A stretch of 55,442 bases of DNA, the filler included, from Ionaspis alba (lineage: Eukaryota), in assembly GCA_964255285.1 (NCBI GenBank). It is 4 parts of 4 records of this genome, joined end to end, with 100 filler letters (N's around TTAATTAATTAA, not from the genome) between each part and the next. Parts side by side here need not be neighbours in the genome. Positions count along the whole stretch, not along the records: positions 41,693 to 55,442 come from CAXUUL010000451.1; 3 more parts are not named here. One strand, given 5' to 3'. Below the pieces are notes generated by a model that was not told where the DNA came from, made no database searches, and saw nothing but the letters and a program-made list of their open reading frames with translations. Below, piece after piece: positions 10,490 through 48,504 of the stretch. Numbering within the stretch: position 1 is the stretch's first letter; each line of letters begins with the position of its first letter. Both the position numbers and the translations under genes were made by a program.

Positions 10490-10589
10490 NNNNNNNNNNN
10501 NNNNNNNNNNNNNNNNNNNNNNNNNNNNNNNNNNNNNNNNNNNNNNNNNNNNNNNNNNNNNNNNNNNNNNNNNNNNNNNNNNNNNNNNN
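10490..10589. other. Assembly gap (100 N) between the convergent GDE1 and PRMT5 stop codons
   Basis: Run of N immediately after the GDE1 TAG. Confidence 0.98.
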
Positions 10590-13801: not shown

Positions 13802-13901
13802 NNNNNNNNNNNNNNNNNNNNNNNNNNNNNNNNNNNNNNNNNNNNTTAATTAATTAANNNNNNNNNNNNNNNNNNNNNNNNNNNNNNNNNNNNNNNNNNN
13901 N
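13802..13901. other. Assembly gap with artificial TTAATTAATTAA six-frame-stop linker
   Basis: An identical 12-mer is centred in the N runs at 13846, 27747 and 41637. Confidence 0.95.
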
Positions 13902-27702: not shown

Positions 27703-27802
27703 NNNNNNNNNNNNNNNNNNNNNNNNNNNNNNNNNNNNNNNNNNNNTTAATTAATTAANNNNNNNNNNNNNNNNNNNNNNNNNNNNNNNNNNNNNNNNNN
27801 NN
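27703..27802. other. Assembly gap with TTAATTAATTAA linker (hides the QTRT2 5' end)
   Basis: N run with linker. Confidence 0.95.
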
Positions 27803-41592: not shown

Positions 41593-41692
41593 NNNNNNNN
41601 NNNNNNNNNNNNNNNNNNNNNNNNNNNNNNNNNNNNTTAATTAATTAANNNNNNNNNNNNNNNNNNNNNNNNNNNNNNNNNNNNNNNNNNNN
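41593..41692. other. Assembly gap with TTAATTAATTAA linker; hides the 3' ends of both CYK3 and the CHAT-STAND gene
   Basis: N run; both flanking ORFs are open into it from opposite strands. Confidence 0.95.
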
Positions 41693-44600
41693 CGGCAGAA
41701 GCTTCCCTGAGGCCCAAGAATTGTGCAACATTGCTTCTGAGCTGGCCGGCCTCCGCCAGAAATTCATTCACTGTTGTCACTTCGAGAGACGATCGACCAC
41801 GCATTATTTCAAATCCCCGTGTGTTCAGGACTATATTCCGAGAGACAAGATCGCGTAAATCTGGATCTGTATGTTTCCAAATTTGAAACATGGGGCGAGT
41901 TTTGACATAACTCCACTGAGTCAAGTATTCTTTTACAGGCTTCTGTAACAGATCGCTACAGAAAATGGCACGCACGAGGGCGTTCACGGTAGCCACCTCC
42001 AGATCTGTTGCAATGCTCCAGGTTTTGTAATCGCAATCCTGAGATTCAGTATCATAACCGCCAGTGTCAGAGTTTGTGAATTTTTGGCGGGTCCAGGTGA
42101 TAACCCGCAGTGCTTTCTGAATGAAGAGACTGAGCACGCGATCTGCAAGTCTCATCCGTCTTGGATCCGACAGAGCTGCTGTTGACATGAAATACTGCAC
42201 TTGCCAGTGTTCTCCGACAGGCCATGAGTCCGTTCGCTGGTAGCTAATTATCAAAGACAGGTAATTGAAGAAGTCAAAGTCGAGTTCAAACTTCATTGCC
42301 TCATGAACTGGAGATGAGGGATGATATGCACTACAACGCGCCCACTCAAATACCCGATATCTGTACTGGGCATCTCGAGCAATCTCAATATCTTCCACAA
42401 CACTTTGTGGATAAAGAGCTCGCACAACTGTACTCTGAGACACCAGCGAGATAAGTGGGTTGATGGAAGAACAAATGCTGCGCAATTGGTGTCCCGAGCT
42501 GCCAAAATTTCGCTCAACTGGACCCTGTACGAAATGCAACAGATGTTTGGTTCGAGCGTCGCAGAATTTGGCGAAAGATTTCGTTGCTGCGTACAAGCAA
42601 TAATGGGCAATGGCTGGGGAAAGCCCGAAGGCTTCCTTGCTCGTCAACTTTTTGTAATTATAGCGTTGGTCGCGAACGCCTTCCTCCGAGAACTCGCAAA
42701 GATGATTACGAAATCTGATGAAAGCTTCATCTTTCAAATAGCGTCTCACTACGAGGAGAATGCCAAATGTAATAATGAAAGGTTCGAGATTATGGGGCAG
42801 ATTATGCCAGAAGCCGAGGAAGACCGCAGCAGAGTAAAACCCACAATTCGCAAGCTTACGGTTAGTTACGGGTTCTCCAATCATCGGATTAAAGGTTCTG
42901 TGACCTTGCCAGAGCATCTGAATGGAATGATTCAGCGCCTCAAGAGAATCATCTGAGATGGTGAGTGGGTAATCTTCTAGAGGTAAGACGTCGTCATGAG
43001 GCGCGTCGACGCTGTGTAACCTTGAATCCGTATTGACATCATCAGCAATCCACTCAAGGATTTCGACCACCGCACGTGCTCCTCCATCGGAGGCAAGTCT
43101 CTCTTTATCCAGGAACACTGGCCGTAGCTGGACCAAAGACAGTAGATGAGACAGTATTGTGGCAGAAGGATCCTCTGCAAAATGCTTCGCCAAATCGTAC
43201 ACTATGACTCGGATGGCCAGGGGATTCCCTTGAGACATTGTGATTAGTTGTTCGAAGTAGGATTTATCATCTTGTGTTGCAAGCTTTGAGGAGAACTCAA
43301 GGTTTCGCAAAATACCGGTAGCCAACGCAATAGTGTTTGACAGATCGATCGGTTCCAAAATGATCCAGGATTGGATCGCGGTACCCAGCCAAAGGTCTTC
43401 TGTTCGAGACAAAACCACGACGGAGCATCTTTTGAGCCTCTTCAAGCACAACCAGATTTCACGTTGATGTTCCGATAGAGTCAGATCAGATGACCAATCT
43501 AAGGCGTCAATACTGTCTAGTACAATTAAGGACGACCGTTCGTCTAATGCTGCTATCAGGGAATTCGTCGAGTGATCTTTGGTATCAATTTGGATTTGTG
43601 ATACCATTGACTTCAAGATTTTGTCTGCAGTACAATCCCGAAATTCTGCGTCGGTCAACTGAATATAAATCGTCCTCTGAAACAGTCCGGTCTGTTGCCA
43701 CCACGCTCTTGCTTCTTGCAGCAGTCTGCTTTTACCGACTCCAGGAGATCCTTGCAGATGTATTCGACTTCCTCCTACTTGAGTCAATAGCCATTCGAGT
43801 CGAAGAAGATCGCCCTCACGTCCAACGAGCTCCGACGCCGCTGGATGGCCGCTGATCGGAGACTCTGCACTCTCAAAAACCGGTGCAGCTTGTCGTAAAT
43901 CTTCTATTTCAGATTCCTGGCAGTGTATGATCGGCACCAGATGGTCTTCGATGCTAATCATTGTGTGGTATTTGCTCATACGGGTGGAATTTCGTCGTAA
44001 CTCTCCTCTCGCGTGTGACACAGCTGCGATTGGCGAGGTTCGTTGACCCAAATATTGGTTGTAAAAGTACCGCATGAACTGATCGGCAGACAAAGAGAAA
44101 ATGTTGAAAGACATGCCAACAGCAATCCTGATACCTGTCCGTACTAGAAGACTAGCAATGTTGGATGCTTCGTTCGACCCTGCAGCCGAGCGACAGGCAT
44201 TGATTACGACAGTCCGAACGCCACATTCGACCAAAAGAGCTGCGACGTCCGCAGCTTGCCTCTCGTCGGGCTGCAGTTTCATGCCCGGGCTAGACTGAGT
44301 AAACATCAACCGTGCCCTGGGAATGACTCACATCGTTAGTATCTGGCATGATTAAGCATCTCCAATCTTCATACCCTTGTCCATCGGAGTCGCCGTGGAG
44401 GTCCAGGTGGACTACACCGAAATGCCCATACGGATGCCGTCTAATATGCCACTCAAGGGCTTTAAATGTTCCTGGGCGTACTATAGTTAACGTGGCTTGC
44501 GAGTTAGAATCATTCCGGATTGTGTCTATCGCGGCGGATATCGATCTGGTGATCAAGCGGTGCGGAATGTCTTTGGTATATGAAGGACGGGCTGTAATGG

Positions 44601-45180
44601 CGAGAACATGTGTTGCCTCCGTACTTGAGGGTAGTGGAGTGTGTATATAATCTCCAATTGTTTGGTGCTGAATTTTGATTTCGTGAACGCGGATAACGGT
44701 CACCTGACGAGGCTCCAAGTGAAAGACATCGCGCCAGAGACTTGTGTCTTCGAGAATTTCCCAGAAGAATCCATGTATGATCGAGCTCCCGGCAACTTCA
44801 CCAGCACCCCAGTCTCGGACCTCTAGAACGAAATGTTCTGGGGCCTTGGGATTTGGACAGATAACGGGCTGCAAAAAGGATTCCAAGAGCTTTCTTCCCT
44901 GGTCTTGAATTTTTTGCGCGATTGTTCGCGCTCGGGCATGTGCGAAAGGTTCTTTGATGATGTACTGCTCAAAGTACCATTGGAAGTCCTCTAAGCTCTC
45001 ACCAGTCACGGTCTTGAGCAGATCTTCGGATGCAGGGCAATGCTTGTGGACTGAGCCAGATTCCACTGACACTAAAACGCTCTCTGCTCCGGCCTTTATT
45101 GAACCAAAGCTCGCATTGGGAGTCTTGTCAACGGCAGCAACCGAGACAGGCTGCAGCGACACTCGGACGATCATGTTCAT
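41693..45180 (-). CDS. NLR-like protein: CHAT (caspase-like) protease + STAND/NB-ARC-type NTPase + helical C-terminal region (3' partial)
   Basis: Exon 1 45180-44375, intron GTATGA..ACTAAC..CAG 44374-44317, exon 2 44316 to the gap. CHAT dyad VVHLDLHG and VVINACRSA, then VGMSF; LVGREGDL, Walker A GSPGVGKS, Walker B LIVLDSID, sensor VVVLSR, GxP motif QGNPLAI. Confidence 0.88.
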
Positions 45181-45465
45181 GTGTCTTATAATCCAAGAAA
45201 TAAACGACGACAAGCAGTTCAGCTCTTTGGAGCGTCTGCGGCCCCAGCTCTCTCTGTGTCAGCGTTTAGATCTGTTGAGCTTGGCGTCCGTGGTCGTTCT
45301 CCTGTAGCCGAGCCCGATGTGGGGTAGAGTCTGGAACCCCCTGGTCTGCGTGTGATAAGGCGCCGACAAGTCGGACACATTGTACAGCGTTGACTTCTAC
45401 CGTATCTCGAGATATAGTGGACGAAAGCCAGATCGCCAAGCCAAGTGACCGGCGTCAGGATTGAC

Positions 45466-46317
45466 ATGATGACGAAGAAAAACAGCTTCTACTTGTTGGA
45501 ACCCTTCCAGGGCATTCCGGTGGACAAGCCCGAGGACTGGCTTGCCCGAATCATTAGCGATTACAATCGCCCTCGCGCCGCCTTCACACCCTCCAAGGCT
45601 CGAGAACCGTATTTCGAGTTCGATACCGATCGCGACTTTTCGGATCTTGAGAGGATTCTCAAGGATGTCCATTCGAAGACGATTGCCTTATCTTTGCGCA
45701 ACGTGTTCGATATATCGCACGAGGACTTCACATCAAAGAAACATACGTTCCGAAGCCGCAAAGTCGAGCGGCTCCGCATCCACCACGATGCGGTTGTGCT
45801 TGAACGGACGCTGGCCGACCCGGAAGTTGTATCCGATATCGAGGGTTGGGATCTGAATGTGTTCAGCCCCATGTATTTCGTAGTCGGGCTGTTGGTGACC
45901 AGCGACATCACGTATAATTCGTCAGAGACGTCAGGGCACAACACCAAGGCCGGCATAGACCCCGTGAACGCCCTCGGCGTGGCAACCGGTGTTCCCGCCG
46001 GCGTCGTGCCGTCTGCCAAGATTGACGCTGAGGGCAAACACCAGGAATCGACGACAGCTCACACTCGAGCGTCCGGCAACAAGCGTGTTTTCGCGGTCGA
46101 ATACCGGTCATTCAGAAAAAAACTGCGGCAACGGCCGGGCAAAGTCGGCAAGCTGGGTGGCTATGGACCGCAAGGGGACCGGACATTTGGGGCTACCGAA
46201 CAGGCGGACGATGACGTTGAAGTCCAGGTTGAGCTGGATCCTGAGCCTTTTTCGGATATCATGGAGGTCGATGGGACGGAAGAACGGTGTCTGCTGCTTG
46301 ATGATAGTGATCAGTAG
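45466..46317 (+). CDS. Fungal gasdermin-like pore-forming protein (RCD-1/HET-Q1 family)
   Basis: 283-aa intronless ORF with the family pattern: FYLL..., WLARIISDYNRP, MYFVVGLLV, Gly/Ala/Val-rich hairpin (ALGVATGVPAGVVP), RVFAVEYR, then TFG and an acidic ~40-aa tail. Lies divergently next to a protease gene. Confidence 0.8.
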   Translation: MMTKKNSFYLLEPFQGIPVDKPEDWLARIISDYNRPRAAFTPSKAREPYFEFDTDRDFSDLERILKDVHSKTIALSLRNVFDISHEDFTSKKHTFRSRKVERLRIHHDAVVLERTLADPEVVSDIEGWDLNVFSPMYFVVGLLVTSDITYNSSETSGHNTKAGIDPVNALGVATGVPAGVVPSAKIDAEGKHQESTTAHTRASGNKRVFAVEYRSFRKKLRQRPGKVGKLGGYGPQGDRTFGATEQADDDVEVQVELDPEPFSDIMEVDGTEERCLLLDDSDQ

Positions 46318-47040: not shown

Positions 47041-48504
47041 CTACAATTTATCAATAATCGCCGCTGCATACTCGTGCGTCTTTGCTTTCCCGCCAAGGTC
47101 ACCCGTCAAAAACTTTCACTGTGTCAGCCTTGTCGTTGACACAAACATGGAGTGGCATTTCTTACCTTTCCTTCCGCCAATGCGGCGAATATGGCCTTCT
47201 GGATCCTGTCCGCATGCTCGTTCAAACCCATATGCTGCAACATCATGATACTACTCAACAGCAGCGCCGTCGGATTCGCAAGTCCCTTCCCAGCAATATC
47301 AGGTGCCGAGCCATGGACAGCTTCGAAGATCGAACACTCGTCTCCAATATTGCCCGAGGGTGTAAGACCGAGCCCACCGATCAACCCAGCGCACATATCT
47401 GACAAAATATCACCGTACAAATTCGGCATGACAAGGACCTTATCGGCATATGGTGCAGGATCCGTGACGATCTTTAAGCAAGTGTTATCCAGCAATTCGG
47501 CATCAAACTCAATATTCGGGAAGTCCTTGCTGATTTTCCGCGCTGTGCCGAGGAAGAGTCCATCGGACATCTTCATGATTGTGGCCTTGTGTACTGCGCG
47601 AACCTTCCTCTTGCCAACTTCCTCGGCATACTGGAATGCGAATCTCAGGACGCGCTCTGAGGCTGCCCGTGTGATGAGCTTGATGCTCTGGACGACTCCA
47701 TCTACAACCACGTGTTCGATACCGGAGTATTCGCCCTCGGTGTTTTCTCGGATGAGCACAGTATCAACGTTGTCGTAGGGCGTTTTGTAGCCAGCGATTG
47801 ACTTGCAGGGGCGGACGTTGGCGAAGAGGTTAAATGTCCGGCGGAGAGTGAGATTAAGTGAGACGTGACCCTTACCAATGGGGGTCTGGTATGTGTTAGT
47901 ATATGCTCGAAACAGGCTGGGGTCGAGGGTGTCGAACGGCTAGAGGTCCTTTTAGGGCGACAAAGTTCTTCCTGACACTGTCAATCGCCTCGTCTGGTAT
48001 GACTGTCTTGCCATCCTTCAATTGCGGTGTAACATCAACAGGCTCCCATTGAATTGGTGTCTGGTGTCGTTAGTGAGTAGACATGGGCTAGAGTGTTACG
48101 GCTTGGTACTTTTGCAGCGGCGAAGATGTCCTTGACTGATTGTGCGATCTCGGGTCCGATCCCGTCTCCTTCTATCAATGTCACTGTGAATTTACCCTAA
48201 TGAAACCTCTGATCAGTCCTGCTTCTCTACCGTGTTGTCCCATCGCATAATGATAACAGCTTAATCGGGAGAGGGTCGTACATTGGAGCCTTTCGTTCCC
48301 TTGAATTTGGCGACTTTGTCTTTCTCTGCCACGTACGTCCTCGACTGAACCTTTCGTGAACATCAGCAACCTGTACAATGCAGTTTCTCAAGCATTGACC
48401 CTAGGAGAACTTGCCTTTGCAAATGCAGGAATCCACAGCTGGGGCGCGTTACTTCGTCTGAGACATTGCCTCGAAGTGGCGGCTAAAGAGCGACTGACGA
48501 GCAT
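47041..48504 (-). CDS. IDH2: Mitochondrial NAD-dependent isocitrate dehydrogenase, catalytic subunit 2
   Basis: Mitochondrial presequence [58 protein letters not shown] and [13 protein letters not shown] (catalytic-subunit type); several introns. Confidence 0.96.

Follow-up and report, generated by a model that had tools for sequence, protein, structure and literature searches.

The DNA analysed here, a window of 55,442 nucleotides from the genome of Ionaspis alba, carries a gasdermin gene of the HET-Q1/RCD-1 family and, on the opposite strand, a gene for a NOD-like receptor (NLR) that combines a CHAT domain, the predicted protease, with an NB-ARC domain. The subject of this report is the pair, and above all the bond F241|G242, which lies between the predicted pore-forming domain of the gasdermin and a short acidic tail and is the candidate site at which the protein would be activated. 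Separate contigs have been put together artificially to make the window, with six-frame-stop spacers of the form N44-TTAATTAATTAA-N44 between them at 13802-13901, 27703-27802 and 41593-41692, with further runs of 100 N at 2829-2928 and 10490-10589. Both genes lie on the contig at 41693-55442 (13,750 nt), and linkage to their locus holds only within that contig, genes below 41593 not being shown to be linked to it.

The gasdermin open reading frame (ORF) is uninterrupted over 283 codons, from a first ATG at 45466 to a TAG stop at 46315-46317 (Table 1). Counted from that ATG, the codon of Y213 begins at 46102, F241 is TTT at 46186-46188 and G242 is GGG at 46189-46191; the coordinates and residues given in a first-pass annotation of the same DNA are exact. 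Another ATG comes immediately after, at 45469. Since several orthologues begin there with a single Met, the residue numbering could be one lower.

Table 1. Features of the gasdermin/CHAT-NLR locus, in window coordinates.
Feature	Coordinates	Strand	Basis
Gasdermin gene (P0001), single exon, 283 aa, HET-Q1/RCD-1 family	45466..46317	+	ORF, translation, orthologues, profile, AlphaFold2 model, RNA contigs
Predicted pore-forming fragment, residues 1-241, 27.2 kDa, isoelectric point (pI) 9.15	45466..46188	+	structure alignment, model confidence (pLDDT), computed mass and pI
Basic cluster R214-K229, after the last core strand VFAVEYR	46105..46152	+	8 K/R, no D/E
Motif G234-P-Q-G-D-R-T-F241 / G242, candidate cleavage site (P8-P1, P1')	46165..46191	+	orthologue and family conservation
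Predicted inhibitory tail, residues 242-283: variable acidic linker 242-255, then V-E-L-D, F262, I265/M266 and terminal R-C-L-L-L	46189..46314	+	conserved columns
CHAT-NB-ARC NLR gene, predicted protease: exon 1 45180-44375, intron 44374-44317, exon 2 from 44316	41693..45180	-	Pfam, intron signals, RNA
Shared divergent promoter region	45214..45426	.	no RNA contig, both flanks covered

The gasdermin fold and its C-terminal boundary

The sequence relationship to characterised gasdermins is detectable only with a profile of 88 full-length relatives, which matches RCD-1-1 (8jyz_A, E 1.6e-6), RCD-1-2 (E 0.0019) and the HET-Q1 pore (9uv9_A, E 5.4e-4). A Pfam scan of the gasdermin found no family at E <= 0.01, Protein Data Bank (PDB) searches with the single sequence and with a profile of 20 orthologues returned no match, and a phmmer library search gave 100 relatives at E <= 0.001. 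AlphaFold2 (AF2) produced no usable model from the 20-orthologue alignment (predicted local distance difference test, pLDDT, 34.5) and, from the 88 sequences, a model in an extended, pore-like conformation (pLDDT 76.6, predicted template modelling score 0.70) with four long strands at residues 52-77, 81-105, 136-164 and 186-216. The top Foldseek matches of this model are all gasdermin pores, led by RCD-1 (E 5.5e-9) and followed by TrichoGSDM, bacterial gasdermins, GSDME and GSDMD, and VIA-align superposes it on the RCD-1 pore 8jyz_B (Z 12.1, root-mean-square deviation 4.9, 201 aligned) and on the Vitiosangium bacterial gasdermin pore 9a84_A (Z 11.1). By structure and by profile alike, the pore-forming domain comes closest to RCD-1-1 and RCD-1-2 of Neurospora crassa (8jyz, 8jyy). 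Judged by profile and model together, the protein is a gasdermin with the N-domain fold, and by analogy its N-terminal fragment is predicted to form membrane pores and to be cytotoxic. Alignments of gasdermin chains to the model start at its residues 1-7 and stop at 233-242. Block pLDDT is 82 for residues 231-240, drops to 57 in 241-250 and stays under 50 from residue 246 onward, which puts the end of the ordered pore-forming domain at about F241.

Two motifs near the N-terminus are widely shared: FYLL (F8-Y-L-L, 45487-45498), in which F is kept in 48, Y in 43, L in 37 and L in 59 of 70 distant relatives, and WLGRIV (here W25-L-A-R-I-I, 45538-45555), with W in 43, L in 64, G in 64 and R in 53. 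In HET-Q1, the N-terminal F10 and W16 are reported to take part in protomer contacts and cleavage competence; any correspondence with FYLL and WLGRIV is tentative, because the spacing differs. The fragment 1-241 holds no Cys, so the N-terminal palmitoylation of bacterial gasdermins cannot apply here, and a Cys among the first six residues occurs in only 2 of 70 distant relatives. The sole Cys of the protein, C275, was considered as a counterpart of the bacterial palmitoyl-Cys and rejected, as it lies in the tail that would be removed and its column has a Cys in only 15 of 20 orthologues and in 10 of 70 distant relatives.

Conservation across the end of the domain was followed in 20 full-length orthologues (54-90% identity, aligned end to end) and in the 70 distant relatives, which represent 50%-identity clusters drawn from 90 near-full-length aligned sequences, fragments outside 240-345 aa having been dropped. 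Among the orthologues, no variation occurs at G234, Q236, G237, D238, R239, T240 or F241, P235 is kept in at least 90%, residue 242 is always small (G in 14, S in four, A in two), residues 243-255 vary freely yet stay acidic, and invariance resumes at E256, L257, D258, E260, F262, E267 and D269. Across the distant relatives, column 241 is F in 51, Y in six, L in six, M in four, I in one and A in one, with a single gap, which makes it F, Y, L, M or I in 68, and column 242 is small in 59 (38 G, 12 A, nine S). The remaining motif columns are looser, with G at 237 in 48, P at 235 in 46, R or K at 239 in 31 and eight, and D or E at 238 in 25 and 11. A fixed non-prime side, a small P1' residue and a variable linker make up the look that would be expected, from sequence, of a protease site that opens an accessible loop. 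A metagenome contig scan with the orthologue alignment yielded one locus, 1567 nt long and without neighbouring genes.

The composition of this C-terminal region is as the first-pass annotation had described it. Residues 214-229 (RSFRKKLRQRPGKVGK) carry eight K/R and no D/E (net +8), six Gly fall within 226-242 in the linker that ends DRTF-G, and the tail of 42 residues (4669 Da, pI 4.05) has 16 D/E against one R, for a net charge of -15, so that the pI is 5.27 for the whole protein and 9.15 for fragment 1-241. The pattern extends well beyond the orthologues: R/K stands at column 214 in 64, at 217 in 51, at 218 in 56 and at 219 in 41 of the 70 distant relatives. Over segment 214-233 all 69 of the distant relatives compared have a positive net charge (mean +4.3), and in 68 of these 69 the net charge of the tail is negative (mean -14). 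The magnitudes of the two charges do not co-vary across relatives (Spearman rho +0.15, p 0.23). Hydrophobic tail columns 255, 257, 262, 265, 266, 276 and 278 are conserved family-wide, and the tail reaches 30-95 aa past column 241 in all relatives but the short P0068 (4 aa).

The CHAT-NB-ARC partner

The partner gene is assembled from two minus-strand ORFs (45213-44290 and 44309-41637) separated by a 58-nt intron with canonical fungal signals (GTATGA...ACTAAC...CAG), splicing of which gives the in-frame product ...HLDLHGDSDGQ-G-ARLMFTQ.... The exon-2 part matches CHAT (PF12770, 34.5 bits; cut-off 24) and NB-ARC (35.7 bits; cut-off 23.5) in Pfam, the exon-1 part alone matches no Pfam family, and PDB profile searches gave no meaningful match for CHAT exon 1 and only TPR (tetratricopeptide repeat) and NACHT proteins for exon 2. 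In orthologues, the exon-2 product is 1279-1528 aa long, includes TPR families of Pfam and matches kinesin-light-chain TPRs. In the window the gene ends with its contig at 41693, a truncation by the assembly and not a deletion, and the part present holds no repeats.

Within HLDLHG of exon 1, H258, L259, D260 and G263 are invariant and H262 is kept in at least 90% of 33 sequences, and the Cys of INACRS is invariant in eight sequences. We take these motifs to be the catalytic His-Gly and Cys dyad, going by the CHAT motif and not by a structure. Two exon-1 orthologues replace the His before the Gly (P0159, HLDLPG; P0164, HLDLRG), and P0019, the presumed partner gasdermin of P0164 (longest contig 16539 nt in both), retains GPQGDRTF|A and the tail; these variants could reflect a decaying protease, a sequencing variant or H258 being the His that matters. 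One CHAT match is named as a metagenome-assembled genome of a lichen-forming fungus.

The start of the CHAT-NB-ARC gene lies 285 nt from the gasdermin on the opposite strand, which places a protease gene within the 10 kb used as a criterion by Clave et al., and the pairing appears to recur in orthologues. For 12 of 21 gasdermin matches, the size of the longest contig is identical to that of a CHAT/NLR match: P0004/P0175 (16875), P0006/P0152 (20263), P0007/P0144 (51665), P0008/P0147 (36982), P0009/P0149 (8511), P0010/P0173 (13543), P0014/P0153 (4575), P0015/P0154 (15027), P0018/P0160 (8514), P0019/P0164 (16539), P0020/P0162 (24839) and P0022/P0163 (10305); a member of the P0017 cluster also pairs with P0161 (34645). 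Judged by these matching sizes, the gasdermin and CHAT genes appear to travel together down to 54% gasdermin identity.

RNA of a close relative shows expression of both genes and bears out the gene model. In a lichen metatranscriptome run that contains contigs roughly 92-96% identical to the locus, a 6618-nt RNA contig spans the NLR gene as far as 45213 and lacks precisely the 58-nt intron, whose ends are CT..AC on the plus strand and GT..AG on the gene strand, and three RNA contigs span the gasdermin from 45427, where an Illumina adapter forms a loose end, to beyond 46350. No RNA contig of this run covers 45214-45426, so that 213 nt of untranscribed, shared promoter are bracketed between the two genes. 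RNA depths are not comparable between the gasdermin and NLR genes.

Downstream of the gasdermin lies an ORF fragment at 47124-47778 on the minus strand; to judge by its motifs, it looks like a piece of an intron-interrupted gene of the isocitrate/isopropylmalate dehydrogenase type.

Candidate activation bond and rival explanations

HET-Q1 of Podospora anserina is a close known counterpart. It is cleaved by the subtilisin-like HET-Q2 with loss of about 5 kDa, L237A and F238A each block cleavage, and of its truncations 1-238 is toxic, 1-237 non-toxic and 1-239 weakly toxic (PMC8851545). The first-pass annotation had described this precedent as cleavage of an F|G bond; the loss of a ~5-kDa tail by a cut after Phe stands, but the reported bond is F238|A239, followed by G240-G241 (PMC13475620; PMC8851545). 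In the 2.68 angstrom pore structure of Su et al. 2026, the carboxylate of F238 hydrogen-bonds Y21 and L237 lines the pocket that receives F10, contacts that the authors place in inter-protomer interfaces I and II (PMC13475620). The protein described here resembles HET-Q1 in length (283 versus 278 aa), in a tail of ~40 residues and ~5 kDa, in having a protease partner and in the relative position of a Phe with small residues after it (F241|G242-A here, F238|A239-G-G there), and its 42 residues after F241 fall within the 38-43 reported for the inhibitory peptides of HET-Q1-like members (PMC13475620). It differs in the residues before the Phe (D-R-T here, V-L there), at P1' (Gly here, Ala there) and in its partner, which is a CHAT-NB-ARC NLR in a divergent pair here and a small S8 subtilisin-like protease at an idiomorphic allorecognition locus there; the sequence similarity is remote, with no single-sequence PDB match.

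Of 1,884 surveyed fungal gasdermins, 19% adjoin CHAT genes, and in Podospora the CHAT domain of Q2L-6 is reported to process the neighbouring Q1-6, with localized cell death (PMC8851545). As in Q1-6/Q2L-6 (Pa_6_6615/Pa_6_6610) and the 353 CHAT-clustered fungal gasdermins of Dataset S1 of Clave et al., which also lists 1,187 paired with S8 proteases, the gasdermin here adjoins a CHAT multidomain protein. In contrast to the TPR-CHAT architecture of Q2L-6, with its protease at the C-terminus, CHAT here lies N-terminal to NB-ARC, and the TPRs of the orthologues are C-terminal. The Coccidioides posadasii het-q1 gene and its CHAT partner het-q2-like are likewise a syntenic ascomycete pair, and the two knock-outs phenocopy each other in a shared developmental defect, which argues for one pathway there (bioRxiv 10.64898/2026.10.27.762035); that gasdermin is a different gene, its role is developmental (spore-chain maturation), and the account gives no mapped site. 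Two Coccidioides het-q1 oligonucleotides, one primer and one guide, had no match in the window within 3 mismatches.

A caspase-fold partner is found again in the bacterium Runella zeae, where a caspase-like protease cuts the gasdermin at L247|G248 and requires the Leu-Gly pair (bioRxiv 10.1101/2021.06.07.447441). The candidate site described here shares with it a hydrophobic P1, a Gly P1' and a loop position before a short peptide, and both tails carry hydrophobic residues, those of the bacterial peptide being Phe residues seen to dock on the core. The Runella protein differs in its 21-aa tail, N-terminal palmitoyl-Cys, Leu P1 and much larger pores. The first-pass annotation had taken a retained Phe site beside a caspase-fold protease to imply either specificity for a hydrophobic P1 or a swap of partner; the former agrees with the Runella precedent, and a recent swap is not needed, since the pairing is apparently kept to 54% identity.

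We consider F241|G242 the most likely activation bond, a candidate that conservation and analogy make probable, if far from certain. The best explanation of the locus is the standard one for the family, in which a CHAT protease under NLR control cuts off the tail and pores are formed by the N-terminal fragment. The gasdermin would be held inactive by its own 42-residue C-terminal tail until the activated CHAT domain of the divergently oriented NB-ARC NLR cuts between F241 (P1) and G242 (P1'). This cut would free an acidic peptide of 4.7 kDa and leave a basic 27-kDa fragment (pI 9.15) that may then bind membranes and assemble a beta-barrel pore. Before cleavage, the tail probably docks through the conserved hydrophobic anchors L257, F262, I265 and L276-L278, and its negative charge may hinder an approach to anionic lipids or shield the basic cluster.

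We infer this bond in preference to its neighbours because F241 is the boundary's most conserved residue family-wide, because P1' is limited to small residues, and because fold and model confidence both stop there. It is favoured further because HET-Q1 assembly needs an exact C-terminal Phe, so that a cut two or three residues earlier (after R239 or D238) or a later one should yield a weak or dead product, and because a hydrophobic P1 with Gly at P1' has a precedent in a caspase-fold gasdermin protease. Given the carboxylate interface and the strict truncation lengths of HET-Q1, any partner, subtilisin-like or CHAT, would have to cut exactly after the Phe, and that residue is thus probably fixed by the gasdermin and not by the protease. 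The first-pass annotation had arrived at the same bond, and its description of a HET-Q1-type gasdermin with a short, predicted inhibitory tail and a caspase-fold (CHAT) partner is supported by the fold, the conservation and the gene pair.

The same motif could instead be cut after a polar residue, either at R239|T240, as by metacaspases or separases, or at D238|R239, as by caspases, with F241 serving a structural purpose only. Both residues are invariant among the orthologues, 39 of the 70 distant relatives keep R/K at column 239 and 36 keep D/E at column 238, and caspase-family proteases typically take Asp or Arg/Lys at P1 (bioRxiv 10.1101/2021.06.07.447441). These columns are nevertheless far less conserved family-wide than column 241, hydrophobic in 68 of 70, a fragment with R239 or D238 as its last residue would probably lack activity, given that HET-Q1 1-237 is non-toxic (PMC8851545), and the sole mapped microbial cut of a gasdermin by a caspase-like protease is Leu|Gly (bioRxiv 10.1101/2021.06.07.447441). 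As such a cut would also leave the limit to G, S or A at 242 without explanation, we regard it as unlikely. Quite unlikely, in our view, is cleavage further along, either within the acidic and variable linker or within the tail (after one of D248-D250 or at ELD258, for instance), or cleavage at several places, with F241 exposed later by trimming or not needed. Residues 243-255 do have the variable, acidic and poorly ordered look of an accessible loop, and Asp is plentiful there for a caspase-fold partner, but no linker position is conserved among the 20 orthologues, and D258 is followed in most of them by Pro, which is a poor P1' for most proteases. One extra residue, moreover, already leaves HET-Q1 1-239 only weakly toxic (PMC8851545). 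Activation might also proceed without removal of the tail, or the CHAT-NLR might have other substrates and the pairing reflect co-regulation only, which we hold to be very unlikely. Cleavage-independent fungal and placozoan gasdermins do exist, such as RCD-1 and TrichoGSDM (PMC13475620), RCD-1 is the best structural match of the model, and P0159 and P0164 lack the His of the HG dyad, yet the presumed partner P0019 of the latter keeps the motif. RCD-1, however, resembles a single N-domain without an inhibitory tail and is activated without cleavage, by co-expression of two alleles, whereas the tail here is of the 38-43-residue class (PMC13475620) and is strongly conserved together with the boundary motif; in addition, the Podospora CHAT domain does process its neighbouring gasdermin (PMC8851545), and the Coccidioides knock-outs share a phenotype (bioRxiv 10.64898/2026.10.27.762035).

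How the tail would inhibit is a separate matter, and here the first-pass annotation, which had proposed that the tail may mask a basic, lipid-binding patch, is weakly supported, as a pattern of signs seen across the family. The opposite signs of segment 214-233 (positive in 69 of 69) and tail (negative in 68 of 69) are nearly universal among the distant relatives, cutting moves the pI from 5.27 to 9.15, and the HET-Q1 tail is reported to restrain liposome binding while the N-fragment binds acidic lipids (PMC13475620). Against electrostatic masking of cluster 214-229 as the main mode of inhibition stand the lack of compensation between the charge magnitudes, a tail charge far in excess of that of the cluster, and family-wide hydrophobic anchors at 257, 262, 265-266, 276 and 278 that recall the docking Phe residues of bacterial gasdermins. 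In HET-Q1, moreover, the authors' AlphaFold3 model seats the tail on the N-terminus, and R213 is described in inter-protomer salt bridges and not as a demonstrated lipid contact (PMC13475620); the tail here has no confident AF2 model. Masking as the main mode is accordingly rather unlikely, and inhibition by docking together with charge is more probable than by masking of a lipid patch on its own, because the magnitudes are uncorrelated, the hydrophobic anchors are conserved and the equivalent HET-Q1 Arg is an oligomer contact.

Several points weigh against cleavage by the CHAT domain at F241|G242. Asp and Arg/Lys are the usual P1 residues of the caspase family (bioRxiv 10.1101/2021.06.07.447441), and D238 and R239 are as invariant as F241 in the 20 orthologues. 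The family-wide Phe could mainly reflect subtilisin-paired members among the 70 relatives. The equivalence of F241 with HET-Q1 F238 is drawn from position (241/283 versus 238/278) and local pattern, the profile alignment to the HET-Q1 pore spanning only chain residues 55-175, with the C-terminal region outside it. Our literature search found no mapped cleavage site for a CHAT-paired fungal gasdermin; the main text of Clave et al. maps none for Q1-6, and its supplementary alignment figures may show site conservation (PMC8851545). The apparently conserved pairing is read from equal sizes of longest contigs. AF2, finally, gave the pore-like state only, with pLDDT below 50 for residues 246-283 and no docked autoinhibitory tail.

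Implications for CHAT-paired gasdermins

The observations and annotation of the first pass are correct, and its interpretation is partly supported and less surprising than first thought. Conceptually, the locus adds little to Clave et al. 2022, Johnson et al. 2022 and the 2026 HET-Q1 pore structure, and fungal clusters of gasdermin and CHAT-NLR genes were already known. It contributes a sharply defined candidate site, GPQGDRTF|G, together with an apparently conserved partner and evidence of transcription in lichen material. It is possible, at a little under an even chance, that pore assembly dictates the bond, with the free carboxylate of the C-terminal Phe as an interface element, and that the unrelated S8 and CHAT folds were forced to converge on cutting after the same aromatic residue. 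On that reading this CHAT-NLR would combine a caspase fold with a preference for Phe at P1 and a small P1' residue, which has yet to be described in the clan, and the invariant G-P-Q-G-D-R-T would serve as its extended recognition motif. The locus thereby poses the question of whether the activation bond of these gasdermins is fixed by the pore-forming domain, whatever the fold of the protease that cuts it.

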